Shown piece by piece: positions 1,045 to 60,100 of a DNA stretch of 64,000 nt. The notes below the pieces were generated by a model. That model saw only the letters and a list, made by a program, of their open reading frames with translations. It did not search any database and was not told where the DNA came from. Source of the stretch: Amoebophrya sp. A120 (taxonomy: Eukaryota > Protista > Dinoflagellata); assembly GCA_905178155.1 (NCBI GenBank), contig CAJINV010000005.1, positions 1,156,392 through 1,220,391 on the forward strand, given 5' to 3'. Position numbers and translations under genes: made by a program. Positions within the stretch are counted from its first letter, which is position 1. Every line of letters begins with the position of its first letter.

Positions 1045-4000
1045 GAGCCTGCAGCACCATCAAGCTTTCTGAACAAACAGCACGGGGGCTTTCCGAAACA
1101 CACTGTCAGAGCGCCAGGTGTGCAATCAGACAACCACGAAGATCTTGTAGCCATTATGGACACGAACCATGATGGCTTTCTGTCCGCAGAAGAAATAAAT
1201 GACGACCAGTGCAACGTGCTAAAACTCGATCAACAGTCTGGCGACGGTGAGAGGAAAATTTCACTCAAGAAGTTGGATTACGCCTGTAGCGATTACTGTA
1301 CCCCGGGTGCGGCTGGTGTGGAGGATCTTGACGAGGACGTGCTCTTGGAAATCTGCCACTGCTGCCCGCCGGAAATGCAAGAAGCATTTTTCCCTTGGTA
1401 CTATGCGAACCGTGAGTACTTGAAGGCGCAGGAGGACCTCGATTTTGCGAAAATGGATGCTGACGATGACGGGCGGCTCATCGCAGACGAGATCCATGAC
1501 GGAATGTGCGACGCGGGAAAAGTCGACCACGAATGGGGCGACGGCGATGGGCAACTTACGGTGAAGGAAGTGCACACTATGTGCGATGCGGTGTGCGTGC
1601 CGGAATCCGCCCTCGAAACGCTTCCCGAGGAGGAACTGATGGCCCTGTGCCACTGCTGTCCGAAAGGTATGCAGGGGCGTTTTTTTGCGCACTATTACGG
1701 AAGAAAAAGCGGCGCTTTTGCGGGGAATCAGGCCGCAGAGGCCAGAATGGCGCTGGACTACTTGGTCTATCGCAACCCGGGAGATGTTGACCACGAAGAT
1801 CTGCAAGTCGCTTCGAGCACCACGACCTCGAACGACAGCGAAGGGGCTGCAGCCCCGTCGGCCTACCAATTTTGCAGCGTAGTGCACATGAACGAGGCGC
1901 CGGTGCGGGTTTGTGGCCGTTTCGACAAGGATGCAAACGCAATCTCCGTGACTATCGCGCGCTGTGTATCCTGTGCAAAAACGTCGTCCCCACACCATAG
2001 TCAAGTTGGGAAATCTGCTAGAGAAAGCAGCCAGCTTTGTTGTTGCGCATGACAAGTTTGGCCTCGATTATAGCTAGCTCAGCAGCGTCACAGGTCTAGC
2101 GCATCGCTCTAATTGGAGCGTCACAAATTCCGAAAAACGAGTACGAAAATTCCTAGCATCATGGGGCTCCGCATGAGAAATATTCTCAGCATGCAGATCC
2201 ATCTGCATATACAACTATGGGGTGGGGACGTTTTTACATAGCATACTACGTGGAGAAGGTAGTCGCGTGGGACCTGACCGACTGCCCGCAGCAGAAAGCC
2301 ACCTGGCAGAACCTGTTTCGGCAGACGTCTGAGAAAACCTACGACAGTTTTTATGGACTGCAAAAATGTCTGGGTCTGGAAGATTCTGACACTTGTCATG
2401 CACGTTTTGCATGAGCCATGATGTCTGTGATGCATCCCCTAGCAATACAGTTTTTTTGAGGGCTTCTTGATGCGTATTCCGCATGACAAATGCCTTCTCA
2501 GCGTAGCAAAAATTGCCTTCCTTTTGGTACTCATGCAATACAATTTTTTTTGGAATCCAAATGCAGCACCATCACAAGTTGCATTCTTCCAGACCCAGAC
2601 ATTTTTACATTTGATAGTTTTTACGATCACGCGTTCGAGCCGCAGTGCAACCTGGTGTCCACGTATGCAAGAAAGGAACTGTGTAAGTGTAACTCCGTAA
2701 AAATGCAGAACATGCAACAGTAGAGTTACACCTGTCATGCCACACGACAAGCATGAAGTCCTCGTTTCATGTGTGTTTTATCCCCTCATAAGGCACCCAT
2801 GACAGGTTATTTTCTCTGTCATGTAGAACAAATTTGTGATGCTGTCAGGGAAAGAAAGTTACACTAACACAGTTTTTTTATTGGATACCACGGACCGATC
2901 CGCCCTGCTGGAGAACGGCAGGCCCGACGTGTATCCTGAGTAAAAATGTCCCCACCCCAGAGTTGTCATGCAGATTTGCGATGACAGGAAGACTTGTAAT
3001 GCGCATCTCCATGAGAGGCAATACCAGTCGTGTTTTGGAATTTGTGATGCTGTGAACAGGATGAGGAGGTGGATTTGTTATGCGGCTTCCCTTGCTAAAC
3101 TGCACTACAATACAGCCTGCAACTTGTCATGCGTGACTCACAAAACTCCTAGGTTTGTGGTGCTAAGTCCCCAACTTGACTCTAGTGTGGGGACGTTTTT
3201 ACTCAGGATAACGTGCAGAAGAGCTTCAACCTGGTCCTGGTGCCGTTCGGCTGGAAGAGCCGCGCGCTGTGGAAGCAGCACACGGAGAGGCTGGTCGAGC
3301 AGCTGGAGCACGACTACCCGCCGCTGAACGCGCGCGAGATGGGCGGCCGGTTGAATTGGCACCGGATCGACGCCTGGCCGAGGTTTGTGGGTTCGGGGGT
3401 CTCCGACTACGAATGCAACGACGTCTATCCAGGAAAAAACACCCATCCCCATCCAATTTGTCATGCAAAACATGCATAAAATACACTATTTGTCATGCAA
3501 AAAATGGATGGGGATGGGTGTTTTTTCCTGGATAACGTCACGGGATGGGACTTCGTCAACTGCTTCTTCGACGCGGACCGCGACTGGTACCGGATCGCAC
3601 GCTTCGCGAACGACCAGTGCAATCGCGAGTACCAGGCCCAGGGTGGATTGGCGCACATGACGGTGCTCGTCCAGGCACGCATGGATCACCGTTCCGAGAG
3701 CGACAACGCGTACGGATTCGCCATGATGTCCTGGAACACCCTATCCTAAGGAAAAACGTCCCCGCCCCAGAGTCAAGATGGGGACTTTGCAACACAAACC
3801 TCGAAGTTTTGGGAGTCATGCATTACAAATTGCAGGCTCTAGTGTAGTAGTTCAGTTTAGCAAGGGAAGTCGCATTACAAATCCATCTGCTTAATATCCT
3901 GTTTACAGCATTACAAGTTCCAAAACATGATCGGAAATCCCTATCATGTGGATGCGCATTACAAATGCTTTTGTGCTTGCAGATCTGCATGGCAACTCTG

Positions 4001-5268
4001 GGGCGGGGATGTTTTCACACAGGATACACCCTGCTGACCCCGGCGGTTCCGGGGTGGAGCTACAAGACCGCGGCCTTATCAAATGTGAAAATGTCTGGGT
4101 CTGGAACGATGTAACTTGTGATGCGCATTTCAGAACACACAAAAATCTCTGATGCATAGGCAGCAAAAGCTGCTCACTTTCTGTCACCAAAGTGGGGGAC
4201 TTGCCATGCGGATTCGGCATTGCGGACGCTTCTCGAAACCTGTGATGCAGCTTCCACGCCAGACCTTCTGTGTCATGCAGAAACAGCATGACTCTTCCAG
4301 ACCCAGACATTTTTACATTTGATAGGCCTCCACGGTCGCCCACGAGCTGGGCCACGCCCTATTCGGCCTGGAAGACGAGTACCATTGGACGACAACCAGC
4401 ACTTTCTTCCCGAATTGCGGCAACGAAAAGTCGCAGTGCAACCGCTGGCTCGACCTGATCGACGCGGGGCTTTCCGGCTGCTACAAAGGCAGCTGCCAGG
4501 AGGAGCAAGGCTACATCGACGGGCCGGAGGTGGACAGCGTCATGGCCTGGTACGGCCGCCAAATGTCGCACAGCCAGAAGCGGATCTCCTGTTGCAAGTA
4601 CTTCAAAGTGCACAAGTTCACGCCTGCCTACTGCGACGTGTACAACCGGACGTATCGCAACAGGACCCTGCAGCGCCCCGTGAACGTCACGGTTCAGCAG
4701 GACGGCTGGGTGGTGGACGAAAGTAAGCACAATCTGGCCGGCTACTACAAGGGCCCGGTGCCCTTGCCGCTGCAGCAGAAGCTGATGGAAACCAGACTGG
4801 CGCCGAGGGTGGTATGGCGTTCTCAAATGTTACATTCTCAACTGTTACATGATTTGTCATGCAAAATTTAAATTGCAAGCAGAATCGATGTGATTAAGCT
4901 GCTGCGCTGCATGATAAATTCTAGAGGAGCCAAACAGGCTGAGAATCTCTCTGTGCCAAATCTGTGATGCGAGACGTGCAAGGTCATCCCTTTTACTTTT
5001 GTCATTCGCGCATCACAGATTCATGTAACAATTGAGAATGTAACAGTTGAGAGCGCCATACATGGACTGGGCCACGGTTTCCGCCGACGGCGTGGTTCAG
5101 CTGGACATCACCTTGAATCCCAAGTCCGAGTTTTATCCGGGCCAGGATGTGGTGCTCGACCTGGCCGGCTTCTGCGACGACCCGGGGCACTGGCGCAACC
5201 AGGAGCTGGACGTGAAAGCCAGTCATCCGCTCTTGGGAAAAGTCGAGTACCCGGACGTGAAAAACTAA
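1..5268 (+). CDS. Zinc metallopeptidase (M64/IgA-peptidase-like) with N-terminal EF-hand/Cys-rich repeats; 5' end outside window; interrupted by 8 TIR introners
   Basis: ORF 19-2052 has repeated MDTDHDGFLSADEI EF-hand-like loops and ICHCC motifs. Removing the 8 elements plus one TSD each gives one frame containing FNLVLVPFGW, TVAHELGHALFGLEDEY (HELGH 4341-4355), and a stop at 5266-5268. Confidence 0.75.
1967..2245. mobile_element. Introner, TIR group B (279 bp)
   Basis: TATCCTGTGCAAAAACGTC...GACGTTTTTACATAGCATA; flanks CTGTG/CTACG (3/5); removal of 284 nt restores frame. Confidence 0.8.
2352..2616. mobile_element. Introner, TIR group A (265 bp)
   Basis: TATGGACTGCAAAAATGTCTGGGTCTGGAAG...CTTCCAGACCCAGACATTTTTACATTTGATA; TSD GTTTT/GTTTT. 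Confidence 0.92.
2664..2887. mobile_element. Introner, TIR group G (224 bp)
   Basis: TATGCAAGAAAGGAACTGTGTAAGTGTAACT...AGTTACACTAACACAGTTTTTTTATTGGATA; TSD CCACG/CCACG. Confidence 0.9.
2932..3210. mobile_element. Introner, TIR group B (279 bp)
   Basis: TATCCTGAGTAAAAATGTCCCCAC...GTGGGGACGTTTTTACTCAGGATA; TSD ACGTG/ACGTG; reverse-complement homolog of 3742-4026. Confidence 0.93.
3426..3534. mobile_element. Introner, TIR group C (109 bp, smallest)
   Basis: Perfect 30-bp TIR TATCCAGGAAAAAACACCCATCCCCATCCA; TSD ACGTC/ACGTC. Confidence 0.95.
3742..4026. mobile_element. Introner, TIR group B (285 bp)
   Basis: TATCCTAAGGAAAAACGTCCCCGCCCCAGAG...CTCTGGGGCGGGGATGTTTTCACACAGGATA; TSD CACCC/CACCC. Confidence 0.92.
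4077..4324. mobile_element. Introner, TIR group A (248 bp)
   Basis: TATCAAATGTGAAAATGTCTGGGTCTGGAA...TTCCAGACCCAGACATTTTTACATTTGATA; TSD GGCCT/GGCCT; interior homologous to 10977-11230. Confidence 0.93.
4813..5060. mobile_element. Introner, TIR group D (248 bp)
   Basis: About 40-bp TIR TATGGCGTTCTCAAATGTTACATTCTCAACTGTTACATGA; flanks GGTGG/CATGG (3/5); frame restored (PRVDWATV). Confidence 0.87.
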
Positions 5269-6903: not shown

Positions 6904-9163
6904 ATGGCTTCCTTCAAGTCTATACCGGTGATTACGCCCTACACCTACAGTTCGAACATGGGTCCGGGCAGCGAGCACGGGGGTCCCTTTTACCCGCTCG
7001 GGCAGCAGTACCACCAGCCTGACATGCTGGCCGACCAGCTGAAGAAGGAGCGAAATCCCCCGCGAGCGGTGATCACGGGCGTGAACACGGACTTCAAGCT
7101 GGACTCCTCTCGCCGGCTGCGGTGGAACGACCCAAAGTCCGGGGTCGTCGACCAGTGTACCATGTACACCTACGGGCAGCCGGACTCTCACCGCTCCTGC
7201 CTATGCATTGCAAATATCGATCTGGGTCTGGAAGGTCGTTGCAAATTGTCATGCTAGTACGGTTGGATCGTGCAAAATAAAAATTTCAATTTGTGTTGCA
7301 TGGCTACCAAAAGTAGTTCGTTGTCCACTTTTATTAAACAAGTTTAGAGGCAGCTTATTCATCTCATGCAGGGGAGGCATGATAGAGATCTCACAGAATC
7401 TTCTGTCATGCTCATGGGCCATGAAATAAAACCAGCATGACCACAAGTCTCGCTATTCTCCAGAAGATCCAGACATATATTTGCAGTTGATACTGCGTCA
7501 CCAGCTACAACAAGGACGGCCTCACGATGAACTCCTTGTCCCACTACAACAAGGTCGGCGCCAAACACCTGCAAGCCCAGTCGCGGTCCAGTCTATCAAA
7601 AGTAAAAATGTCTGGGTCCTCTGGGAACTTGTGATGCTGGGTAGCGTCTCATGATGAGGCTACAAATGCTGGCTCAGCATGACAAGTTTCTGAGCTCCTC
7701 GGTGTTGCCTATTCTGCATGACAAACTGCGTAGTTTCTGCATCACGGAAAAGCGGAGCTGCTCTTGGGTAACGTGCATGACAGATCATTTAAGAGTCATG
7801 CCAGACAAGCATGACAAACATGAACAATTCTTCCAGACCCACACATTTTTACTTTTGATACCGTCCCATCCACTCCTACTTCAGCGAACCGAGAAGAAAG
7901 GTGCCGGACATCGGAACCAAGGTGTGGGATAACTTCGGCATCGACGGCCACATGAAGGCAACGTCAGAGGAGATCGGCAACTGGTCGCCGTTGTGGTACT
8001 TGATAGTGTGAATGAAATTCTCAACTTCTTATTTCGGCGTGCTTTAAATTTGATATTGTTTCCTCTGCGCTTGCTTTCTCTTCCAAACGAAAAACGTTGT
8101 TGATCCGCAACTTGATAGTTGCCCTCGGTATTAGTGCACTTGAAGAAGTTGTCGCAAAATCGTTTATTGAGACGGCGATCCTCGGCCTCGGGCTAAAGCT
8201 AATCCTGAAGAAGTTCTTACAGGGTTCTCATGCGAGAATCTGTTGAAAAAAAATAACCACCAGGTACCGCGCCGTGAACGACATGAACGTGTATGCCAAC
8301 CTGCGACCGGACACCATGAAAGCCCTCGGTCTCGAATACGAGGAGCCGGGCGTCAGATACGGCATGATCAACGGGGAGTTTCTTCCCAAGGTCGAAAAAG
8401 TGAACGATTCCGCGCGAAGTTCGGCGTGGAGCGAGAACCACAAGTACGTGGGGTATCCCAAAGAACCCTCCATGCAGGCCCGGGCCTACTACGGCAACGA
8501 CGCGCGGACCAGCTTCGCCTTGGCCGACGTCCAGAAGTACATGTCACCGCTATGCCACTGCAAACCAATTTGTCAGTCGTGTTTGGGTCGGGATTATTTC
8601 TGGTCATGCGAGTTTATGTAAAAGTACTACAGAAACTTCAACAGGATCTTTATCTTTTGTGATGGTACGAACATAGATAGGACAAGGAGCATTTTTGAGG
8701 GTTATTTCTTCTTGTTTTCTCATGCTGGGCGTTGTACCAATTGCAATAATTTTCCAGACGACATAAAGATACCCCTGAAGTTGTAGTTGTCAAAACAATC
8801 GCAAACTTGTCATGCGGTCGTGGACCACAGAAAGCCTTTGAATATTTCCACTCTGAATAGCTTGTGCACAGCAACACAACTAGAACTACGCTGCATCCTT
8901 TACCCAGACCCAGCAGACAACATGTTTGCAGTGAATAACCGGTCTCCATCGCGAACTCGGACCCCACGTCTCTCCTGCGCGCACAGAAGAACCGGGTTCG
9001 GGAGGAGGTTTTGGCGCAGGTGCGCCGGGCACCGCAGTACGGGAGCCACCGGGGGAGCGGGGGCGGGAGGGCACTGTCCAGCGGAAGGACCGCGTCGACA
9101 ACGCACTCCACACCGAGGGCCGGCGACTTCATGCGGAAGTCCGCCTCCACACCGAGAATGTGA
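6904..9163 (+). CDS. Hypothetical protein; 3 introners plus one GT-AG intron (7996-8263)
   Basis: ATG at 6904 (MASFKSIP). Joining across 7202-7492, 7594-7860, 7996-8263 and 8551-8937 gives a continuous frame ending TGA 9161-9163. No family recognised. Confidence 0.7.
7202..7492. mobile_element. Introner, TIR group A, degenerate (291 bp)
   Basis: TATGCATTGCAAATATCGATCTGGGTCTGGAAG...CCAGACATATATTTGCAGTTGATA; TSD CTGCC/CTGCG. Confidence 0.83.
7594..7860. mobile_element. Introner, TIR group A (267 bp)
   Basis: TATCAAAAGTAAAAATGTCTGGGTC...GACCCACACATTTTTACTTTTGATA; TSD CAGTC/CCGTC; interior highly similar to 39574-39831. Confidence 0.9.
8551..8937. mobile_element. Introner, decayed group A-like (387 bp)
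   Basis: TATGCCACTGCAAAC...TGGGTCGGG and CCCAGACCCAG...GTTTGCAGTGAATA; TSD ACCGC/ACCGG; frame restored. Confidence 0.75.
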
Positions 9164-10621
9164 AGATGTTGATTTATGTATTATTTTCAACACAAAAGTC
9201 TAAGTCTTCACAGGCATACTTCGTTCTGACTCAGTGGTGGAAAACCGCGAAACTCAAACTCTGTTAAGTACCCCTCCTGGAAGATGAAATAAACAAGAAG
9301 TCGGAAAGAACTGATGAACCTACCACTCTACTCCCGTTCTGCAACTTTTCCCCAAAGCAAAGTTTATCGACAAAAAAGCTTTTTTTTTCTTTTTAGCAAT
9401 TTGAAACTACTTCCTTGAGACAAAATAAAGGACAACCGATATTGTGGTTATTCTGTAGAAATAAATCATTCACGTTATTTGACAAGTTCTGTCTCTACTA
9501 CTTTCGGCCTGCTTTCGCACTTGAATTTCATAACCTTGTACTTTTTATTTTTGGCTAGAGGCTCGTGTCATGATCATTTTCGGGAAGAGATGTTGACTTC
9601 TGGAAGTAAACGAACTCGCGCCAGAACTACGCCCTCCTGGAAAAAGGAAAAGGTGTAGAGACCTCCAGAATCAATGCATGTCATGGAACTTTTTAGACAC
9701 AAACGTCATGTACATCATTTCAGTTGGATCAAGTAGAGGATGATTGTGACAGAACTCCTTACATGGTAGGGAGAATGATCGACACTGTAGCCTCGCTACA
9801 GTTGTGTCGTCAACATGTATTTTACATAAATCGCAAAGGTTCAAGTTCTCGCTCTTCTTCCAAGAATCAAGATCATGAAGGATCTCATGAAGTCCCCAGA
9901 TCTCAACCTCAAGGTCAAAAATCTTTACACAGAAGAATCTTCTGCTGTATTCCTGGACTGTCGGCACACGAACGATCCAGCGATCGCCGCGAGCTGAACC
10001 CTGTGGTCCTCGCCAAAGTTGATCTATTTACGGACGAGCTCACGAACACATCGATGCTTTTGCTGGTGGGGGTTTCCAGAAAAGTCCCGCTTTCCTGATC
10101 TGCTCGTCATGTTGATCACTTCTTGGCCAACATGTGCTAAATGCAGAAATAATCAATTAATATTCAGAATAAACTAAACCACTCCAGCACAGCTACACAA
10201 ATTATCACCCTACTTAGAGGCTGAAATAGTCTTCTTGTTTGCAGACATAAGCTTCACTGTAGTACTATACCAAAGTAGGTGTAGGATTTTGATTTTGTTC
10301 CATTTGTTTTGTGAAAAACCAAAAAGCTTCTTCACTAGGAGAGTAGACTCCACTCTTCAAGTCGTACCACATAAATACCAAAAACCACCAACAATAATCT
10401 CTTGAGAAAAAAATTGAGTTGCCACCCGACTCTCTCCATCAATCCGCTGTAAGATTTGGGAATCAATCGTAATTTTTCCTACACCGCTGTAAGATTTACC
10501 TTCTACTTTTGCAATAGTAGACGAAAAAGGAATAAAACCAGAATACGTATTGATCATTGTGTTTACCTGAAATAACTTGTTGCGAGCCGTTTTCTTCTAT
10601 TTACAAAAAGAAAAAAAAGAC

Positions 10622-13600
10622 ATGAGCAAAGAACAAAGAATGTGTCTCCGGGCGCAGGCAATGAAAAGGAAAAGCTCAACGACGACCTGTCAAGCCATGA
10701 TTGTCTGGGCATTAGCGTTTTCTTCTCCTCTTGCAGGCGTGCGTGCTTTCCGGTTTCAGCTAGAAGAAGCGAAGCTCCAGCCCTTCGGCACTACCGCTCA
10801 CCGTCATTATTTCGATCGCAAGAACGGAAACAACAAGGACACCAACCTGACCGGTGATGAAGGTTTTGCTGAGAAACGCGAGATGACAAAGCAGCTCGAG
10901 CAGTGTCCTCGTCCCATTGATTGGGACCCTGCGTACGAGATATTTTCCGTCAGGGACATTGCGGAAATGTTAGCGCTATGGATTGCAAAAGTGTCTAGCT
11001 CTGGAACAAGGTTGAAACCTGTGATGCGCATTTCAGAATGCAGAAAAATCTCTCATGCATAGGCAGCAAAAGTCGCCCACTTTCTGTCACAAAAATCAGG
11101 GATTTGTCGTGCGGATTCGGCATTGCGAACGCTTCTCGAAACCTGTGATGCTAGAGCTTCCATGCTAGACCTTCTGTGTCATGCACAAGCAGCATGATTC
11201 TTCCAGACCCAGACATTTTTACATTTGATAAGCGCGACAGCTAAAAATGGGCGGGGTCGACGCAATGATGCAGGCCTTGGCGAAGAGGCTCCAGAAGTTC
11301 TCGACCAAGTCCATGAATGTGGAGTACCATGACCGAGCCGTGTTCGAAGCCATGGTGGGAAAAGCTGCAGACGATGATAAAGCGAACGGCAAAACGGACC
11401 TTGGCAACCTCGGGGCCTACGTGACGAAACTGGCGGCCAAGTGCGCGTGGGTGAAGTTGGTGCGGGGAAGTTCGGGGTGGCAGGAGTGCTTCATATCCTG
11501 AGTAAAAACGTCCCCATACGAGAGTCAAGATGGGAAATGTGCTAGACAAAGGAGCCAGCTTTGGTTGTTTCGCATGACACGTTTGTACTCGTAGTGTAGT
11601 GCTGTTTAGCTAGTTCAGAAGCATCACTTACCTAGCACATCATGCTGATTCTAGCATCACAAATACCAGAACACGACGAGAAAACGCGTCTCATACAGCT
11701 CCGCATGAGAAACTTTTTGGCACGCAGATTTGCGGGACAACTCTGGCGTGGGGACGTTTTTACACAGGATACTTCACGAAGGAGATTTACAAGGTGTACC
11801 AGGAAGCCACTTGGCAAGACGCGAAATGCTACGCGGAAGCGGCGGAACGATGGATCTCTAAGGGAGGACTGTCGGCTGGTGGTGAGGACGAACTACGCAA
11901 CATTACCAGCGTGGACCAGATTCTCGCGTCCGGCGTGGCAGGTGTTGCCAGCAGCAGTGGCACAACTACAACTTCTGGCGCAACAACTGCAAGCTCAAGC
12001 ACGGTGTTGAACAACAAGCCGAGTACAACTGTTGAAACGAAGAAAGCGGAACTGCTTCGCTCGTTCAAAAATGCAGGGTTGGTGCACGACAGTGCTGCTC
12101 TGCCGCCGGAGGACCTAGCGAGGAAGATTTGCGAGATGGAGCTTGTAGCACCGGAAATTTGCCAGAGTGATCATCAAAAAATGGACGACGACGAGGATGT
12201 TAAGGAAGAAGCAGAAGCGCTCGATTCTAACGTTGGCAGGAGGACTTCTTGTTCAGCGGACGTTGAAACAGCCGGCTCTGAAGAAGAGTCCGACAGTGAT
12301 GTTGACAACTGCTCGACGGACTCCGTCGAGGCGGAAGGTGAAGAAGGTCGGGTTCTACAGGATGGACCACGTGGTCCTGGGTCTCCTGCACGAGGATCAG
12401 CTGCCACTCCTCTTGCAGATGCCCTCAACCTTGTGAAAGGTCCGCAGAAACGGGCGTCTGCGAAAGCTAAAGGCTGCATCGAATTCCGATCCGACATGAT
12501 GAGCCCGCAGTGGATGTTTTTTCTGGACAGTGAAAACAAGCAGGGGTTTCTGACCATCCGGGGTACGGTTTACCTTGACGACTGGAATACGAATTTCAAC
12601 AGCTCGGGGGATCGGGCCAGCCCGGTGTACGCGGAATACAAGCATTCTATGCCCGCCGCAAAGTCCGCGTTGTCGATGGGTACGAACCCAGAGGAGGAGA
12701 AGGAGTTGGGACCCTTTTTGATGCTGCACAAAGGTTTTTACGACCGCGCGGCCACGGCAATCATGGAACTGGAGGTGGAGTTGTGGAAGCAGAGCAAGAA
12801 GATTGCGCAACAAGAACAGCGCGTGGCCGAGGAGAAGATGAGCAAAGACGAAGGAGGTCGTGATGAGGATGATGGAGCAGGTACTAGTGGTAGTGAACGT
12901 GAACAAACGGTGGAAACCGAAACGGCTCCTGTGATGATCCGCGATTCCACGAGCAACTGCGATCCAGCCGACGAGGAAGTACTCGCTTTCGAAAAGCAAG
13001 CGGGGACAGAGAGTCACAAAAGCGACGTGTTCCGGAATTTCGCGGAAGAAAAAACTTACCTGGAAAAGCGCCAAACCAAATTGCCGACCTGCTTTGTCGA
13101 ATATCTGAAAAAAAACATCGCAACTAAAATCTCCGACAAGCTGTTCCTCCAGGGCCACTCGTTGGGCGGCGCCGCGGCATTGGTGATTCACCGTCTGAGG
13201 GAAAAGTCCGACCTATTGCAAGCGATGACGAACAACTCTGCCGGGAAAAAGATCCACACGAACGCGTTCTCCGCGCCCCCAATGTTCACGTCCGGGTCGC
13301 CGGAGCAGGCAAAGCTGGCTTTTGTGTACCTCGCCACCGGGAAACTCGCCAACTGGGCGCTGGATGTAAACCGCGTGCTTGCGGGCGACTACCGCTGCTC
13401 CTGGCTTGAGGAGCTCGCGACGGAGTTTCCGGACGGTGACTTGAATAAACAGGAGACTATATTGTGGAAGAACTCCACGAACCTGTTTTTCAATTTCGAC
13501 TTTGTGCCCCGGCTCGCGTTCATGAACGTGCAGAAGGAGCAAATTGTCCTCCCGCCCGTAGAGAAAGTTTTCTGGCTTCGCGACACCGCGCCCGCGGGGC

Positions 13601-14187
13601 TGCAAGAAAAGTTGGACAAGTGCGGGAAAAGCTGCAGCAAAACTCTTACCCGCGTCGCTACCGTATTCCGGGTTCCGCTTTACGCGCAAGCGACGGTCTT
13701 GTCGAGTCTAGACCAGATGCTCTCGCCGTATCCAAAGGAATTCTTGCTGGACGCAGTACAGGAACACCAGATGCCTACTTACGAACCGCTGTTGGTGGCC
13801 TTGTTAGGAGGAAAGAACAGCAAGAAAGATAGCCTGTCTGCTGGTGTAGCAAGTCTTGAAGTGGGGATGAAGGGTGAAGAGAAAAGCGTCCCTGCTTCTG
13901 AGACGCAGAACGTACAAGAATTTGAGCTGGAGCGACCGCGCGGTGAGGACAACGTCGAGAACCTTCTCGCCAATAGCAAAAGGAACAGCACTTCTGGAAA
14001 CAAGAAGGGCTTTCTTGATGAGGTTAAAGAATCTACTGCGGAGGTGGATGATGATGTTGATGACGTTGACGAGGATAAAAACAGCGAAGAAGAAGACCAA
14101 GAACCTGTTGCTTCCATGCCGCTCCCGCCGATCGTTACTCCGGCAGAGTACATGGAAATGACATATGGGGACATGACTATACACTAG
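10622..14187 (+). CDS. Class 3 lipase (alpha/beta hydrolase), copy A; 2 introners
   Basis: GHSLGG nucleophile motif, FLTIRGT, HKGFY, NFDFVPRL; N-terminal hydrophobic stretch; colinear with copy B after removing 10977-11230 and 11494-11771 plus one TSD each. Confidence 0.88.
10977..11230. mobile_element. Introner, TIR group A (254 bp); empty site in paralog
   Basis: TSD AGCGC/AGCGC; the paralog at about 16775 has a single AGCGC and no insert. Confidence 0.95.
11494..11771. mobile_element. Introner, TIR group B (278 bp); empty site in paralog
   Basis: TIR TATCCTG(A/T)GTAAAAACGTCCCCA matches 22/23; TSD CTTCA/CTTCA; the paralog at about 17033 has a single CTTCA. Confidence 0.96.
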
Positions 14188-16208
14188 AAAAGTTTACAAA
14201 TATATATCTGAAAGAATAAATTTTTGAGATCTTCATCTCCCGCTTTATTTTTTGCGATGGGCTCTACCTTTGACTTTGTGTTTATGGAAGCTCGGCGTGT
14301 GGCACATTCGCACTCTTTTAGCAACCGTAAACAAGGTCGAAGTCCAGCAGACGAAGAAGCTGAGCCTGAAGCTGCATCGAGCTGATGCACTTTGGCAAGA
14401 CAAAAGAATCAAAATTCAATAAATTTTGAATTTTATTATAATGAAATTCAATGTGAGAAATGCAGGGCGTTGAAATGAAGATGCAAAATACGTGTGATGA
14501 TGTCTGCAACAAAGCACTTTGATTTTTGTTTTTGTTTTTGCAGACAGTTACTCGCAGGCCATAAGAGGCGAGCAAAGGCTTGTTTTTGTTTTTGCACAAT
14601 TTTGGGATGTAACATTTTGTTTTACGAACCTCGCAGGATGACCAAGGCCTGTGGCCGACGTTTGCTGCACATGAAATTGAAAAAAGCTGTATCGATGAGA
14701 TTTTTACATGACCGCCTGTGGATATGAAAAGCAAATTGTGCCTCTATCCGCAGTGTTGTCGTGCGAAAAATGTAAGATGTGAACTGGCAACACCCGTGTA
14801 TGATGAGGCGAAAAGAAGTATGAAGCCTAAGAAGCTTCCGAAAGCAAAAGCATTGAATACAATAAATGTACCATCCATCCGACCGACAAATGAAGCGCTA
14901 AAGGAAAAAGGTGAGTAATCGCGTTTCCACCCTGCCGCATAACTACAAACAAACAACAAACAAGATAAAGGCAGTAGGTAGAACATGAACATGGCAAAAG
15001 AACCTAAAACCCACCCTAGGAAGAAGTCGATCATGGAACTCAAGTACTTCAGAGCTAGTCTGGCATGTTGACCGTAGTGGTCTTTTGATTTTGCACAGTA
15101 ACTCCGACGTCTACGGTAACATGCCGAGAAGCGAATACGAAATGTATGGATGAAATGAAACTGTGATGAACAAGAAGTACTGAAAGTACGTGACGAATCT
15201 GAAGAAGAAAAAGTTGGAGCCTAGGAAGAAGAGCACTATTATAAACGAGTTTACGGCGTGGGCGTCGAGGGGTGTCCTCTGGTGATGCTTCCGCGACAGG
15301 ATATTTTCTACCCTGGCAGACTCATGTTCGTTGTGTCTTTATTGCACACTAGATCATTTCAGTTGGATCAAGTAGAAGATGACTGTGACAGAACTCCCTT
15401 CTGACACTGTAGCACCGCTACAGTTGTGTCGTCAACATGTATTTACATAAATCGCAAAAGTTAAAGTTCTCGCTCTTCTTCCAAGAATCAAGATCATGAA
15501 GGATCTCATCAAGTCCCCAGATCTCAAGGTCAAAAATCTCTACACAGAAGAATCTTCTGCTGTATTCCTGGACTGTCGGCACACGAACGATCCAGCGATC
15601 GCCGCGAGCTGAACCCTGTGGTCCTCGCCGAAGTTGATCTATTGATGCTTTTGCCGGTGGGACGTTCCAGAAAAGTCCCGCCTTCCTGATCTGCTCGTCA
15701 TGTTGATTATTTCTCGGCCATGTGCTAATCGAAAACGCAGAAATAATCAATTAGTATTAAGAAAACATCAAACCACTCCGCAGCTACACAAATTATCACC
15801 CTACTTAGAGGCTGAAATAGTCTTCTTGTGTGCAGACATAAGCTTCACTGTAGTACTATACCAAAGTAGGATTTTGCTTCATCCGTTTTGTGAAAAACCA
15901 AAAAGCTTCACTAGGAGAGTGGAAAACTCTCTTCAAGTTGTACCACATATTAAGAACCAGAAATCACCAACAATAATTTCTTGAGAAAAAATTTTAATTG
16001 ACACCCGACCCTCAATCCGCTGTAAGATTTGGGAATCAATCGTAATTTGTACTACGCTGTAAGATTGTATACTTAGTACTTGTGCAAGAATAGTTGCTAT
16101 AATAGACGAAAAAGTAAAGGTAAAGGAAACGCAAAATACGTATTAATCATTGTGTTTACCTGAAACTTGTTACGAACCCTTTTCTTCTAACAAAAAGAAA
16201 AAACAAAC

Positions 16209-19200
16209 ATGAGCAAAGAACAAAGAATGTGTCTCCGGGCGCGGGCAATGAAAACGAAAAGCTCAACGACCTGTCAAGCTATGATGTTCTGGGCATTTGC
16301 GTTTTCGACTTCGCTTGCAGGCGTGCGTGCTTTCCGGTTTCACCCAGAAGAAGTGGAGCTCCAGACCTTCGGCACTACTCCTTCCGCTCACCGCCATTAT
16401 TTCGATCGCAACGGAAACAACAACGACACCAACCTGATCGGTGATGAAGGTTTTGCTGAGATGAATGAGGCGGCCACGGCCATCTGGACAAAGACTCCAC
16501 CTGCGCATCATGATTCTAAAGTTGGAACGGGAAAAAGTGCAGCCGGAGAAGAACTTCGAAAAGATGAAACAACAAAGGCCGTAGTTGAAGTAGCTCCCAC
16601 GAGAAAACAAATGATGCAAAATAGTAAGTTGGATCGTGCAAAATCCATGCTCTCCGGAACAAATGACAAAGCCAAAAAACTGAAACGCGAGGTGACAAAG
16701 CAGCTCGAACGGGGTCCCACTGATTTTGACCCTGCGTACCAGATATTTTCTGCCAAGGACATTGCGGAAATGTTAGCGCAACAGCTGAAACTGGGCGGCC
16801 TCGACGCGGCGATGCAGGCCTTGGCGAAAAGGCTCCAGAAGTTTTCGACCAAGTCCATGAATGTGGAGTACCATGACCGAGCCGTGTTCCACGCGATGGT
16901 TGGAAAGGCTGCAGACGATACTAAAGCGAACGGCAAAACGGCCCTTGGCAACCTCGGGGCCTACGTGGCAAAACTGGCGGCCAAGTGCGCCTGCGTGAAG
17001 TGGTGGCGGGGAAGTTCGGGGTGGCAGGAGTGCTTCACGAAGGAGATTTACAAGGTATACCAGGAAGCCACTTGGCAAGACGCGAAATGCTACGCGGAAG
17101 TGGGGGAACGATGGAATTTCAAGGGAGGAGGACTGTCGGCTGGTGGAGGCGCTGGGGACGATGAGGAACATCAACTACGCATGATCACCAGCGTGGACCA
17201 GATCCTCTCCGGTCGTGTAGCAGGTGTTGCCAGCAGTGCGACAACTACAATTGCCGGTGGAAAAAGAACTTCTACAAGTACGATGCTGAACAACAAGCCG
17301 AGTGCTGTTGAAACGAAGAAAGCGGAAATGCTTCGCTCGTTCAAAAATGCCCGGTTGGTGTACGAAAGTGCTCTGCCGGTGAAGGACCTAGCGAGCAAGA
17401 TCTGCGAGATGGAGCTTGTCGGACCGGAAAATTGCCAGAGTGAAGATCGTCAACAAATGGACGACGAGGAGGATGTTGAGGAAGAAGCAGAAGCGCTCGA
17501 AGATGTTGATTCTAACGTTGGCAGGAGGACTTCTTGTTCTGCGGACGTTGAAACAGCCGACTCTGAAGAAGAGTCCGACAGTGATGACAACTGCTCGACG
17601 GACTCCGTCGAGGCGGAAGATGAAGAAGGTCGGGTTCTACAGGATGGACCACGTCATGGTTCTCCTGCACGAAGATCAGCTGCTGCCACTCCTCTTACAG
17701 TTACCCTCAACCTTTTGACCGGTCCGCAGAAACGGGCGAGCGCAAAAGCTAAAAGCATCGAATTCCGATCCGACAAGATGAGCCCGCAGTGGATGTTTTT
17801 TCTGGACAGTGAAAACAAGCAGGGGTTTCTGACCATCCGGGGTACGGTTTACTTTGACGACTGGAACACGAATTTCAATAGCTCGGGGGATCGGACCAGC
17901 CCGGTCTACGCGGAATACAAGCATTTTATGCCCGCCGCAAAGTCCGCGCTGTCGATGGGCGCGAACCCAGAGCAGGAGGAGTTGGGACCCTTCTTGATAC
18001 TGCACAAAGGTTTTTACGACCGCGCGGCCACGGCAATCATGGAACTGGAGGTGGCGTTGTTGGCGCAGAGCAAGATTGTTGTGCAACAAGAACAGCGTGT
18101 CGTGGTCCAGGAGATGAAGAAAGACGAAGGAGGTCGTGATGGAGATGATGAAGCAGGTACTAGTGAACATGCGCAAACGGTGGAAACCGAGACGGCTCCC
18201 GTGAAAGTAATCCGCGATGCCACGACCACTTGCGATCAAGCCGACGAGGAACTCCTCGCTTTCGAAAAGCAAGCGGGGACAGAGAGTCACAAAAGAGACG
18301 TGTTCCGCAATTTCGCGGAAGGAAAATCGTACCTGGAAAAGCGCCAAACCAAATTGCCGACCTGCTTTGTGGAATATCTGAAAAAAAACATCGCGACTAA
18401 AATCTCCGACAAGCTGTTCCTCCAGGGCCACTCGTTGGGCGGCGCCGCGGCATTGGTGATTCACCGTCTGAGGGAAAAGTCCGACCTATTGCAAGCGATG
18501 ACGAACAACTCTGCCGGGAAAAAGATCCACACGAACGCGTTCTCCGCGCCCCCAATGTTCACGTCCGGGTCGCCGGAACAGGCAAAGCTGGCTTTTGTGT
18601 ACCTCGCCACCGGGAAACTCGCGAACTGGGCGCTCAATGTAAACCGCGTCTTTGCGGGCAACTACCGCTGCTCCTGGCTGCAGGAGCTCGCGACGGAGTT
18701 TCCGCATGATAATTTAAACAAGCAGGAAACCAGACTGTGGAAGAACTCTACGAACCTGTTTTTCAATTTCGACCCGGTGCCCCGGCTCGCGTTCATGAAC
18801 GTGCAGAAGGATCAAATTGTCCTCCCCCCCGTGGAGAAAGTTTTCTGGCTTCGCGACACCGCACCCGCGGGGCTGCAAGAAAAGTTGGACAAGTGCGGAA
18901 AAAGCTGCAGCAGAACTCTTACCCGCGTTGCTACCGTATTCCGGGTTCCGCTTTACGCGCAAGCGACGGTCTTGTCGAGTCTAGACCAGATGCTCTCGCC
19001 CTATCCAAAGGAATTCTTGCTGGACGCAGTGGAGGAACACAAAGCGAATACTTACGAACCGCTGTTGGTGGCCTTGTTAGGAGGAAAGAACAGCAAGAAA
19101 GATAGCCCGATATCATCTGGTGAAGCGAGTCTTGAATTGGGGATGAAGGGTGAACAAGAGAACAGCGTCCCTACTTCTGAGACGCAGAACGTACAAGAAT

Positions 19201-19475
19201 TACAGCTGGAGCAACCGCGCGGTGAGGAGAACGTCGAGAACCTCCTCGCCAATAGCAAAAGGAACGGCACTTCTGGAAACAAGAAAAAATTTCTTGATGA
19301 GGTTAAAGAACTTACTGCGGAGGTGGATGATGATGTTGATGACGTTGACGAGGATAAAAACAGCGAAGAAGAAGAGCAAGACCCTGTTGCTTCCATGCCG
19401 CTCCCGCCGATCGTTACTCCGGCAGACTACATGGAGAGAGCACACTGGAACTTGAGTATACATACTAGTAAGTGA
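16209..19475 (+). CDS. Class 3 lipase, copy B (intronless, 1088 aa)
   Basis: Single ORF with GHSLGG, FLTIRGT, HKGFY, NFDPVPRL. Confidence 0.9.
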   Translation: MSKEQRMCLRARAMKTKSSTTCQAMMFWAFAFSTSLAGVRAFRFHPEEVELQTFGTTPSAHRHYFDRNGNNNDTNLIGDEGFAEMNEAATAIWTKTPPAHHDSKVGTGKSAAGEELRKDETTKAVVEVAPTRKQMMQNSKLDRAKSMLSGTNDKAKKLKREVTKQLERGPTDFDPAYQIFSAKDIAEMLAQQLKLGGLDAAMQALAKRLQKFSTKSMNVEYHDRAVFHAMVGKAADDTKANGKTALGNLGAYVAKLAAKCACVKWWRGSSGWQECFTKEIYKVYQEATWQDAKCYAEVGERWNFKGGGLSAGGGAGDDEEHQLRMITSVDQILSGRVAGVASSATTTIAGGKRTSTSTMLNNKPSAVETKKAEMLRSFKNARLVYESALPVKDLASKICEMELVGPENCQSEDRQQMDDEEDVEEEAEALEDVDSNVGRRTSCSADVETADSEEESDSDDNCSTDSVEAEDEEGRVLQDGPRHGSPARRSAAATPLTVTLNLLTGPQKRASAKAKSIEFRSDKMSPQWMFFLDSENKQGFLTIRGTVYFDDWNTNFNSSGDRTSPVYAEYKHFMPAAKSALSMGANPEQEELGPFLILHKGFYDRAATAIMELEVALLAQSKIVVQQEQRVVVQEMKKDEGGRDGDDEAGTSEHAQTVETETAPVKVIRDATTTCDQADEELLAFEKQAGTESHKRDVFRNFAEGKSYLEKRQTKLPTCFVEYLKKNIATKISDKLFLQGHSLGGAAALVIHRLREKSDLLQAMTNNSAGKKIHTNAFSAPPMFTSGSPEQAKLAFVYLATGKLANWALNVNRVFAGNYRCSWLQELATEFPHDNLNKQETRLWKNSTNLFFNFDPVPRLAFMNVQKDQIVLPPVEKVFWLRDTAPAGLQEKLDKCGKSCSRTLTRVATVFRVPLYAQATVLSSLDQMLSPYPKEFLLDAVEEHKANTYEPLLVALLGGKNSKKDSPISSGEASLELGMKGEQENSVPTSETQNVQELQLEQPRGEENVENLLANSKRNGTSGNKKKFLDEVKELTAEVDDDVDDVDEDKNSEEEEQDPVASMPLPPIVTPADYMERAHWNLSIHTSK

Positions 19476-20811
19476 AATTTACAATAAATATATATCTGAA
19501 AGAACACTTTGTTTTACAATAAATATATATCTGACTTTGATGAGACCTTCTCCTGCTCTATTTTTTGCGATGGACTCTACTATTGTGTTTATGGAAGCTC
19601 GTCGTGTGGCATATTCGCACTCTTTTAGCAACCGTAAACAAGGTCGAAGTCCAGCAGACGAAGGAGCTGAACGTGAAGCTGCATCGAGTTGATGCAATTT
19701 GGCAAAGCAAAAGAATCAAAATTCAAAAAATTCAATGTGTGAAATGCAGTGTGTTGAAGATGTAAAATACGTGTAGTGATGTCTACAATAAAGATAAAGA
19801 AATTTGAGGATATGACACTTTCTTTGTTTTATGAGCCTCGCAGGACGACCAAGGCCTGAGGCCGACGTTTGCTGCACATGAAATTGGAAAAAGTTGTATC
19901 GATGAGATTTTTACAAGACCGCCTGTGGATATGAAAAGCAAATATGCCTTTATCCGCAGTGCTGTCGTGCGAAAGATGTAAGAATTGGACTGGGAACACC
20001 CGTGTAAGATCGAATAAATGTGAAAAGATTGATGTTAACTGCACTTCCGTGTATGATATTACGACGCGAAAATAAGTATGAAGCCTAAAAAGAAGTTTCC
20101 GAATCCGAAAGCATTGAAATGTACCATCTGACGACAAATGAAAATCCCCCGTCAGAATATATGAAAGCAGTAAGTACAACGTGAACAACATGGAAAAAGA
20201 ACCTAGAACCCACCCTACGAAGAAGTCGATCATAGAACTACCGTAGAGCTAGTATGGCATGTTGACCGAAGAAGTGGTCTTTTGTACAGTAACTCCGACG
20301 TCTGCGTCGACATGCCGAGAAACGAATTGTATGGATGAAACTGTGATGAACAAGAAGTCTGAAAGTACGTGACGAATCTGAAGAAGAAAAAGTTGGAGCC
20401 AAGAACAACACTACTTATTATAACGAGTTTGCGCCGTCGAGGAGTGTCCTCTGGTGATGCTTCCGCGACAGGATATTTTCCACCCTGGCAGAGTCATGTT
20501 CGTTGTGTCGGCACACTATAGCATTTTTGTTCGTTTCAGTTTCTTTTGCGTGATGATAGATTCTGCAGGCCAGCCAGTAGACATCAGATCTGCCAGGAAA
20601 AGGAGACCAAAAAAGATGAAGTCGATGAGCGAAACGCTTCCTGAGCAGGTGCGATGAGAGAAAGACAGAGAGCAGCGTTCGTGGTGCACAGACACCAAGG
20701 CATGTTTTTTTAAATTCAAGATTTTGATTGCACAAAGATCGATGCAACTGGCACTGCAGGTTGAATTGATTTGGGTTCAGCTTCTTCGCAAGGTGCCGTG
20801 CGTAAACAAAG

Positions 20812-39000: not shown

Positions 39001-39971
39001 TATGGTTTGCAGCCAAGCCACAAAGCGGAGTCTGAAGTTCGTCCGGAGGCCTCGTCACAGAAGCGTGCTGCGGTTGCAGAAGTAGATCAGAGCCAAAAAT
39101 TAGCGCAGGCTGGTACTGTACCAACTACAACGAGCTTGCAACGGGAGATGAGCAACTCCTCGGCCAAGAATCTCGAAACCAGCACGACCATGAACCTTGT
39201 CGACAGTGAGGCGAGCACCGAGAAGATAAAGTCGCGCTGCGTTGTCCGCACGACACACACACACTCCCTGAAATCCTTATTTGGGAACATTAACGAGAAC
39301 CGGTTTATTGGGAATGCAACGGCGAATACGACAACATCGAATGGCGCGGTGTCCTCCTCATCGTCCCGTTTCATGAACAATAAAACCAACACACATTTCA
39401 CCACCACCGCACACCACGCGCAGATGAATCATTGTAACCAAATTTCAACAACATCAAACACCTTCGCCCCGCCGCCCCGCACGCTCTATGCGTTCCAGCC
39501 GTCGCCCGACGATGAGCAAGAGCCACCGGAAGACTCGCCGCTGGACCCGACCGTGTTGCAATTTACCACGCCGTATCAAATGCAAAAATGTCTGGGTCTG
39601 GAAACTTGTGATGCTGGGTGGCGTCTCATGATGAGGCTACGAACGCTGGCTCAGCATGGCAAGTTTCTGAGCTCCTAGGTGTTGCCTATTCTGCATGACA
39701 AACTGCGCTTCTGCATCACAGCAAAACGGAGCTCATCTTGGGTAACGTGCATGACAGATTTAAGAGTCATGCCAGACAAGGAGCATGACAAACATGAATT
39801 CTTCCCGACCCAGATATTTTTACAGTTGATACGCCGGTACAGGCCAACCCGGATCCGCACTCGAGATTGGAGAACGCGCTGGCCAGTGCAGAGCAGCAGT
39901 TGCGAAAAACGAAGACGCGAGGATTTTACAACACCAATGTCAAGGCTACCTCGCCTGTTTTCTCGAATTAG
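36094..39971 (+). CDS. Hypothetical Ser/Thr-rich coiled-coil protein
   Basis: Predicted GT-AG introns 37402-37543 and 37803-37915 plus introner 39574-39831 link three long ORFs; TAG at 39969-39971. Confidence 0.65.
39574..39831. mobile_element. Introner, TIR group A (258 bp)
   Basis: TSD CGCCG/CGCCG; interior nearly the same as 7594-7860. Confidence 0.93.
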
Positions 39972-57100: not shown

Positions 57101-60100
57101 CGTTTCCATCGGCGCCTTCGGCTGCGTTCCGGACATGAAGATTCCGCAGCGGAGCTGGTACCAGCGGTTGACAAAAATCTCCTTCGAGAATCTGTACCTG
57201 ATCTACCCCTTGGATTTGTTGACGATGAAAGTCAGCCCGGAAAACTTCGAAATGAGCAAGCAGTCGATTGTCAAGATGAACGAGTGGGACTGGTTTCGGT
57301 ACGTTTTGGCGAAGCAGGACATCAACGAAACGAGTATGGTGAGTAACAACGAAATCAGAATTGACGAGTGGAAGCTCGCCTACGAGGAGTGCCACGCTGC
57401 CGCGGCTAGCGGCGACTTCTGTGACGCGGGGGGCAACCCTTTGGTGGCTGTTTTCAACAATCCGCTGAATGCGATAATAGGTGCACGAGCCTCGGCCTCG
57501 GGACAAAGTGGTAGTGGAGGGTCAACATCTGCGACAGGTGTGAGCTCCGCGACAGTCAGTGCTTCTGCTTCTTCAAACAGTACTGCAATTATGATCTCAT
57601 CTGCCAGCACCAGCAGCACCTCCACTCTTACTACGACCGCTCCAGCACCTCTGCAAGTGTTGAACACGACACCAACCTCGACTACCACGATAACCTTAAC
57701 CATTCCCTCCTTCCCCAACGTCGTCGACGGGTGCTTCACTGCTTACCAAATCACCGACAACTACTATTACAGTGAAAATCTCCCCACTCCCAAAGTTGCA
57801 ATAACTTGTGATGCGAAGTTTCCAAATGAAAACCTTTTGCCATGCATGAAAGGAGTATGAATCTTTCTGATGCAGAGTCTAGGCGTATGTAGCATCGCTT
57901 GCATGAGGACAAGCGCCGCTCTTGCTGGGCTCGTTTGCAATACAGATTTTTGCTAATCACGATTGAAAATTTGCAATGCTGATAGATGCAAGAGGGCGAA
58001 TGTTTCGTTTGGAAAGGTTTGCAATACTAACAAATGCTCCCAAGTTCTGGGTGGGGGGCATTTTTCATTGTAATAACTACCTCTATTTCCATTTCAAGCA
58101 CGACCGGAGCGAGCACCTCTACGTGATCGACCCACCATATGGAACGGTCAGGATTGAAATTGACAAAGTTGAAAAATTTGTGATGCATAAAATCGATACC
58201 AGTTGGAACCCCAATTCTTCTCGGCGCATGACAAATTTTGGCACCGTCTGAAGCCAGTTTATCATGCTGCTTAGGGACAGACGGCGTCTTTTGTCATGCT
58301 ACTTTGGCAGCCCGCCTATCGCAGACCCCAAACAGGCTGACAGTTGGCCTCACTTGTCATCCCTGCAAGAGAGGCGCTGCATGCCTTGCAATTTCTGCAT
58401 GAGTAACTACTTATTTCAACTTTGTCGATTTCAATCCTGGCGCTTCCATACACCGGAATCCTGTTACCGCAGCGACAGCGGCCAGTTATCAAAAGGAAAA
58501 ATCCCCCCACCCCATACTCAAACTAGAAATTTGTGATGCAGATTTGTGGCCACAAATCAGCTTTGTTATGCTAGAAGGGAAAAGATGCGGACTGTAGTGC
58601 TTGTTGGTGTGGGAAAGCCTTGCATCTTCAGCATGACAGGGGGCAGCTGGAAGTGGGAAACAGCATGACAAATTGCCTGCAAAAGAGGCCACAGCTGCGT
58701 CTCTTGGCCTTCTAGCATTACAAATCGATTTGTGTACTCAAATGCAGCATCACAAATTTCGTTTTCGATATGGGGAGGGGGGATTTTTCCTCTCAATACC
58801 AGTCCAGGGGCATCAACTGGGAGGAGCAAACTATCGCGAGGCAGAGGGCGTACCTGCAAGGTAGTTTCTTTCACACTTGAGATTTTTTGGCTTTATTGCT
58901 GAAGGAAGTGGTCATGTGCTGATCCTGATAGACATAGATATGCGCGCAAAGTTGGATTTGGTTTAACGAGTAACAAGCGTACTTAAGTCAATCCCTAAGT
59001 CCTATCAGGTCGAAAATGGCAGCGTCGCATCTATTTCGAGTGGAACCAGGATGGCCCGGATTTCGTGTCCACGTCCGGCACGCAAATAGATCTCTCCGGG
59101 GATGCGTTCAAATTTTCGCCCGCTATGGGTTTGACGTTCAAGCTGGAGTTTCCGGACGCTCCGTTGGACCCAAATTTGCAAAATCTGAACCTCGCGGAGA
59201 TGCAGGTCACCCACATAATTGGTCGGATTTCCGTCGATTTGACCGGTTGCAGTTCCTTCATGCGGGACCCGTTTGTAGATGAGTATTTGGGGGCAGAATC
59301 CAGTGCCGCCCAGGTGCGGGAGGACTTCGAAGCGTTCATTGTGGATAAAGGCGGAAGAATCGTCTGCGCGCGGTCGCTAGACGACCAGGTGCGGAAAGTG
59401 GACAACAGCGGGAAAAATACTCAGTTGCAGTTCAAGAAGATCTGGGAATTAGCTCACTTCAAAGACGATTTGGGATTGTCTCCAACCAGCTGGGCGCTGA
59501 CCGTTGCGAAATTGGACACCATTCCAACCTTACCGCCGCTCTCCGGCGGGATGGTGGGAGTGCGGAGCAAAGTCGACCAGTTTGAACTGCCGAACTACGC
59601 GAACGAATATGAAACAACCACTTCCGCCTCCAGCTCCGCGGAGCTGGACCACGAGGACGCGAATTTAGGGCCGCTCGGCTGGGGCTCCCCCTTCGTGATC
59701 CGGCGGATCAGACACAGTCGCATGGCAGGCTTCTACGTCGTGACCCGGATGACGACCGCACCCTTTTCCTCCACTGCAAGCGGGATCGCCGCGGTGTTCA
59801 TGACGCTGGTCATTCTGGGGGGTTCCCCGTTTGTGCTCTGCTGTTCCATCGTCGGGTTATTCGCGATCCGGGATGTCGCTATCTACAAAAAGGAAACGCA
59901 GAGGCAGCGCGCGTTGTTGGAAGCGAAAGCAACGTTGGAAGCGGTGGCCGCGGCGACCGGCGGTGGGGGAACGGCGGGACGGAACTTGAACCAGACGGAG
60001 GTCGACGATGCGAAAATGATCGAGGCGGCAGCGTTATGCACTGCAAATAATATGTCTGGGTAAGGAAGGATAGGAACTTGTGATGCGTCCTGTGGATCAC

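Follow-up and report, generated by a model that had tools for sequence, protein, structure and literature searches.

Two neighbouring lipase-like genes in the dinoflagellate Amoebophrya sp. A120 preserve filled and empty sites for the same pair of short inverted-repeat elements. The genes lie in a 64,000-nucleotide stretch of contig CAJINV010000005.1 (NCBI GenBank assembly GCA_905178155.1, forward-strand positions 1,156,392 to 1,220,391), which we refer to as the window and whose coordinates are used throughout. One gene copy, A, is interrupted by two elements, E1 and E2, each bounded by an exact 5-bp repeat; in the other, B, each 5-bp sequence occurs once within an uninterrupted reading frame. 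The two elements, which have TAT...ATA ends, probably inserted into copy A after the tandem duplication and are likely removed at the RNA level together with one copy of the repeat. The locus is a real and exact new instance of an intron kind that has been described before; this particular A/B pair was not found in the literature searched.

The two genes belong to a roughly 5.5-kb tandem duplication. Its neighbouring units, A (9711..15349, left edge approximate; self-BLAST and pairwise alignment) and B (15350..20526, right edge approximate; alignment), both lie on the forward strand, and their flanks mismatch at 7.9% of positions upstream and 8.8% downstream of the genes. Copy B is therefore not a retrocopy, as the earlier note on this DNA had held, since the intergenic flanks are duplicated too. 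Copy A (10622..14187, forward strand) is a class 3 lipase-like gene of three exons that encodes 1007 amino acids (aa) once each element and one repeat copy are omitted. Copy B (16209..19475, forward strand) is an open frame of 1088 aa, with its GHSLG motif at 18426-18440. The spliced frame of copy A is 85% identical to copy B, with a synonymous divergence (dS) of 0.157 (0.128-0.192), a nonsynonymous divergence (dN) of 0.078 and a dN/dS of 0.5 (0.39-0.62).

Copy B fixes the ends of both elements. Aligning the two units, which the earlier note had proposed together with the dS estimate, leaves two gaps specific to A, one of 259 bp at 10972-11230 and another of 283 bp at 11489-11771. Both can be shifted along the alignment by exactly 5 bases. 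E1 (254 bp, 10977..11230, no strand assigned) lies between copies of AGCGC at 10972..10976 and 11231..11235, and E2 (278 bp, 11494..11771, no strand assigned) between copies of CTTCA at 11489..11493 and 11772..11776. In copy B, the alignment places a single AGCGC at 16775..16779 and a single CTTCA at 17033..17037, within the open frame (all six copies are given on the forward strand). The coordinates that had been read from the letters alone were exact, and so were the element ends and the 5-bp target-site duplication (TSD) deduced from them. Omitting each element with one repeat copy restores the reading frame of copy A.

E1 and E2 are non-coding inverted-repeat elements from two different multicopy families. 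Their terminal arms are complementary at 17 of 24 positions in E1 and 22 of 24 in E2, and neither has an open reading frame (ORF) longer than 51 and 52 aa, respectively. All four ends fit the pattern TAT, seven looser bases, AAA. The interiors of the two elements score 38 against each other, close to the shuffle maximum of 33, versus 267 and 194 within their own families, which bears out the initial assignment to separate families. The sampled subfamilies, drawn from the window and from the loci described below, comprise 14 copies for E1 (about 250-265 bp) and 16 for E2 (about 279 bp). E2 also folds as a hairpin (z -3.9). Both are short, carry terminal inverted repeats (TIRs) and a fixed-length TSD, and have no coding capacity, which are features of miniature inverted-repeat transposable elements.

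The repeat that flanks the elements is a target duplication of constant length, 5 bp, and shows no sequence preference. We examined 29 elements listed by hand in the window and at least 152 loci (L001-L152) from one other assembly, fetched by a scan for the family motif, and added a repeat-blind search that found elements by their ends alone. In the repeat-blind set, an exact 5-bp repeat flanked 185 of 236 elements in the loci (3 bp at three, 4 bp at two and 6 bp at none) and 17 of 22 in the window; among the hand-listed elements it was present at 21 of 29. These counts, together with the roughly even base composition of the repeats in the repeat-blind set, argue for a fixed 5-bp duplication, which the empty sites of copy B show directly. 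The family end motif matches 18 times in the window and never in 100 shuffles, and thus does not arise by chance. Among 516 ends, 96-98% have A at positions 11-13, but TAT and an A-rich stretch there were themselves search criteria. Both element orientations are present in the loci, and X5, a sequencing run of even depth, has very high summed depth over element ends. The motif was absent from the viral contigs searched, and Rfam returned only chance hairpin matches.

Two long stretches among the loci (L045 1815-2445, 631 bp; L070 1501-2472, 972 bp) have the family ends and a 5-bp repeat around unrelated non-coding interiors, and could be nested insertions or captured DNA. A paralogous pair at 39839 and 45715 was considered as a further empty site and rejected, as it is not one.

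Copy A is apparently expressed and spliced. The evidence comes from four runs of one sample (X1-X4), taken as RNA by guess and used as contigs, not reads, which were compared with a stretch that includes A as well as B. One X1 contig joins 10971 to 11231, skipping 259 bases with five ambiguous letters, at a depth of 3.3 and with 31 letters on its short side. On the two sides of this joint, 3 and 5 of the 31 flanking bases are different in copy B, which was available for matching; the joint therefore belongs to A. For the second insert, an X1 contig crosses from B sequence into A-specific bases from 11796 on. None of the six 31-mers that this path requires is in the genomic window; they exist only in an A molecule free of insert 2, which indicates that such a molecule was present. 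Paralog-specific differences, as first suggested, thus point to spliced copy A at both sites, by a joint at insert 1 and by 31-mers at insert 2. In addition, the protein of the public gene model P0002, which its source labels as A120 and which thereby identifies the host, is contained unaltered in spliced copy A, both junctions included. Both inserts are likely cut out of the mRNA with one repeat copy.

Eight further elements (1967..5060, forward strand), in an upstream M64-peptidase-like gene, served as a test set for removal. In a 3263-nt X1 contig, a genomic stretch of 2359 nt is represented by 635 nt, precisely the length that remains when seven of the elements are omitted with 5 bases each; the agreement is one of length, because the inner contig pieces are not listed. 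The eighth element is skipped as 4810-5062, and the result is an open frame of 676 aa. Contigs from X5 run into these elements and keep them. The same spliced contig includes one family in both orientations (2932 versus 1967 and 3742). This gene (HELGH motif, window 1261-5268) holds elements of several families and is a better test bed for splicing rules than the lipase pair.

A very unlikely account of these data is that the inserts are not RNA introns at all, and that the insert-free sequences reflect DNA excision in some cells, an insert-free allele or strain, or a copy A that is dying and rarely spliced. The guessed RNA status of X1-X4 and their use as contigs leave room for it, as does a possible insert-free A junction in X5 beyond the joints listed for that run. 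Yet the stretch 15314-15781 has no cover at all in X1-X4 and even cover in X5, and a single X1 contig lacks the eight elements that X5 contigs enter. RNA-seq validation of such introns is also reported in the available text of Farhat et al. (2021, PMC7789003). As to a dying gene, copy A lacks 74 codons that are present in B, and dN/dS is 0.5, but it runs for 1007 codons without a stop or frameshift and the whole dN/dS interval is below 1. A raw-read RNA run from 2026 under the same species label (X8) gave only 11 partial matching reads and was uninformative.

Copy B also contains an in-frame segment of 222 bp (16460..16681, forward strand) that is missing from A and from the earlier note. It is exon and not an element, because it has no inverted repeats and is retained in RNA-like contigs (the X3 contig piece 15921-16874 is gapless). 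Behind the lipase copies, non-coding stretches at 14549-15209 and 19634-20388 are covered by single contigs that are deeper than the coding parts (X1, X2 and X4); they may be a long 3' untranslated region or a separate transcript, and a piece near 14894 matches X8 reads too.

The elements are not removed at conventional splice sites. At none of the six possible cut positions do E1 or E2 offer GT-AG, GC-AG or AT-AC ends, so neither is a canonical U2 or U12 intron. Across the 29 hand-listed window elements, GT-AG is possible at none, and GC-AG or AT-AC at some position in two. Applied to the loci, a coding model favours taking out the element with 5 further bases, rather than with 4 or 6, in 99 of 134 cases.

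Imperfect repeats in the upstream gene point to where the cut falls. At the element at 1967, flanked by CTGTG and CTACG, the contig retains bases up to 1965, which is base four of the upstream copy. At the element at 4813, flanked by GGTGG and CATGG, it retains at least the first two bases of the upstream copy. This suggests that the cut falls 0-1 base ahead of the element on one side and 4-5 bases beyond it on the other, and that the upstream repeat copy stays in the mRNA; by the example of these two elements, the upstream AGCGC of E1 likely does so as well. Mismatches in imperfect repeats (62 confidently oriented of 216 tested) number 4, 3, 5, 2 and 3 at positions 1-5 and, being evenly spread, do not locate the cut. 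Where the fifth base differs, the downstream copy has G in five of six cases (7202-7492, 8551-8937, 58138-58450; L005, L040 and L001). If the fifth base ends the intron, these small numbers hint at drift towards a terminal G.

Removal appears to be blind to target sequence and orientation. To judge from the two imperfect repeats, the splicing signal would be the paired ends and not the letters at the junction. We envisage that a DDE integrase-like transposase, acting in trans, would make a target cut with a 5-base stagger and so insert the elements into copy A after the tandem duplication. The splicing machinery may then read the paired terminal repeats and place its cuts at set distances from the element, some 0-1 base ahead of its start and 4-5 bases past its end, whereby the downstream repeat would leave with the intron and the reading frame would be restored by the removal of the element and one repeat. 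A stricter version is possible but short of probable: only the paired TAT-N7-AAA ends would be read, as on a ruler, with cuts at the 5' edge and five bases past the 3' edge, and a single integrase-like mobiliser with a 5-bp stagger would account for all insertions. If so, each insertion into a coding exon would be a perfect intron from birth, in any target and either orientation.

Several observations weigh against insertion into copy A followed by RNA-level removal. E1 folds no better than its shuffles (z -1.1), and only its ends pair. No transposase was found among the 38 ORFs of the window or in three longer same-ended stretches of the loci, and the available text of Farhat et al. (2021, PMC7789003) reports none in A120. 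RNA support for copy A consists of one low-depth contig (3.3) and one chimeric contig, from a single sample whose RNA status is guessed, and many X1-X4 contigs still carry element ends. The open frame alone does not fix the number 5, because removing plus 2 or plus 8 bases at both sites also leaves copy A open, and the position of the cut is read from two imperfect repeats, both within a single contig. Of the 14 sampled copies in its subfamily, E1 has diverged the most: it departs from the majority at 27 of 251 bases, and its terminal branch is 0.099 against a median of 0.048. E2 has a terminal branch of 0.10 among 16. The duplication is dated at 0.04-0.05 (flanks) to 0.08 (dS/2) per lineage, so these ages allow insertion before the duplication. 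Furthermore, the two sites are 258 bp apart, and one recombination with cDNA in B could therefore remove both elements.

The last of these points favour a history in which the elements pre-date the duplication and were precisely lost from B, either through a single recombination with cDNA of its own spliced transcript or through two repair events between 5-bp repeats. The element divergence of about 0.10 is at least the per-lineage age of the duplication, and a single event would suffice for sites so close together. The element ages are upper bounds, since the sample is small and comes from another assembly, and dating by terminal branches did not separate gain from loss. Moreover, loss requires the same two gains and an exact deletion besides, whereas gain in A needs no extra event, which counts in its favour. 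The stretch between the two sites is about 90% identical in A and B and is not homogenised, so B was not overwritten by cDNA from A. The sites are also located in the 5' third of the gene, and cDNA-mediated intron loss is less usual in the 5' third of genes.

A second tandem pair of paralogs likewise argues for gain. In this pair (L009 923-1762 and L011 1501-2123, 11% diverged), none of four elements is shared, filled sites occur in both copies, and three of the four have an aligned empty site, the fourth lying at the alignment edge; eight self-matches to an element's own flank were dropped from the search. Across the two pairs, none of six elements is shared at about 10% divergence. Loss from B is thus unlikely, and gain of both elements in copy A is quite probable. 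Hence the original proposal, insertion into A after a recent duplication, stands as to gain, which is likely though its direction is unproved; its timing, following a recent duplication, finds no support in the element ages. The outgroup comparison suggested at the same time found no orthologue near the insertion sites, and so did not show gain: searches returned proteins of the window, A120 models and distant relatives (31-42% identity, lipase part). A scan for metagenome loci returned none, a weak negative because all six peptide patterns were specific to B.

The host gene is a predicted class 3 lipase, on the basis of a profile match and motif order. Both copies contain GHSLG, NFDxVP and EH in that order, which we take to be the lipase Ser-Asp-His motifs, and the Asp and His are invariant across eight aligned sequences. 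The C-terminal model P0004 scores 23.5 bits against Lipase class 3 (PF01764; cut-off 22), and seven of nine scanned homologues pass that cut-off. Copy B alone matches Lipase_3 at E 7.6e-4 and 19.8 bits, under the cut-off, and fungal lipase structures match the host protein weakly. The label that the gene first received is therefore weak for copy B by itself and better carried by its homologues. The 1007-aa frame of copy A has a possible signal peptide in the form of a hydrophobic stretch at its N-terminus; public annotation divides this copy into two models, of 192 aa (partial) and 565 aa.

The window has several further features. The left edge of unit A (9711) falls inside an inverted-repeat stretch (9558-9794) with non-TAT ends and a 4-bp flanking repeat, GCTA, and unit B accordingly has only the right part of that stretch. 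Three copies of a 45-bp segment of ETF-alpha coding sequence (50046, 50942 and 51859) lie about 900 bp apart, each followed by GTATA. The 850-bp spacers between them show no relation to the TAT elements and are possibly long-repeat insertions inside an intron. The triple repeat near 50046 was considered as a U1-like small nuclear RNA (snRNA) and rejected, as it reads as ETF-alpha coding sequence and has no Rfam match. A 51-bp tandem array at 63689-64000 and a 624-bp near-identical repeat in 1-1055 are both coding-like.

The element class is already in print, as is a 5-bp TSD with TA termini for one A120 family, and a public gene model already splices both inserts. This pair is ordinary for the A120 genome, and its value is that of a clean control with empty sites. 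The empty sites speak for one integrase-like mobiliser, in the face of published doubt, and fix element ends that had been left open before. With the ends fixed, imperfect repeats would allow the real cut sites to be read genome-wide from existing RNA-seq. The removal of non-canonical introns without a detected U1 snRNA thereby becomes a testable question. Neither a comparison of filled with empty sites nor a map of cut sites was found for Amoebophrya in the literature searched, outside which lay subscription papers, the supplementary figures of Farhat et al. and 18 of the 58 rows of Dataset S2 of Gozashti et al.

The closest known systems are the A120 introners of Farhat et al. (2021, PMC7789003). 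The available text describes inverted repeats that begin with TAT, seven looser bases and at least three A, a length of about 240 nt, non-canonical ends and a multicopy distribution, with some 29,850 repeated introns in A120 and no U1 snRNA detected. Its direct repeats are 3-5 nt and variable in position (a supplement legend names 5-bp direct repeats), as in the available text of a 2024 review (PMC11282704). It leaves splice sites undefined and gain not separable from loss, and argues against general mobilisation by transposase. E1 and E2 belong to these introners by their TAT-N7-AAA ends, short direct repeats, multiple copies and non-canonical removal (here from one sample, with RNA guessed). 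Unlike in that description, the repeats here are strictly 5 bp and abut TAT and ATA, and the empty sites show target duplication.

Gozashti et al. (2025, PMC12130899) assign many A120 families of 250-320 bp to DNA elements with TIRs (Dataset S2, rows 1-40 of 58). Among these rows, family 38 is annotated with a "5-bp TSD, TA/TA termini" as Ginger-like with integrase-like homology, and family 19 has a TSD of 5 by manual inspection; automated TSD calls for the other families are 2 to 6 or missing. Our likening of E1 and E2 to these families is by description. In the available text of Bao et al. (2010, PMC2836005), Ginger/TDD elements use an integrase-type transposase, and TDD-4 and TDD-5 both produce 5-bp TSDs. 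Ginger termini there are TGTNR and most TSDs are 4 bp with a target preference; because E1 and E2 begin with TAT and not TGT, they do not fall within Ginger so defined.

Further likenesses come from other protists. Introner-like elements of the dinoflagellates Polarella and Symbiodinium (bioRxiv 10.1101/2020.10.14.339549, available text) are transposon-derived introns that also have TSDs, and some work in both orientations, as here. Those elements recruit GT, GC or GA and the AG either out of their TSD or out of their own sequence, which constrains the target; in A120 the target sequence is not constrained. Nonconventional introns of Euglena, as described in the available text of Nomura et al. 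(2025, PMC12501133), are cut by spacer length, with 5 nt on the acceptor side, a rule tested by knock-in. Euglena is an unrelated lineage whose introns have a CAG/CTG motif and a donor spacer of 3 nt and whose exons start with a purine, and the A120 spacing is deduced from two elements. Both kinds lack GT-AG ends and share paired terminal motifs and, should the A120 spacing hold, cut sites set by spacer length. If the ruler reading is true, the spacing in A120 would have converged on the 5-nt acceptor spacer of Euglena.

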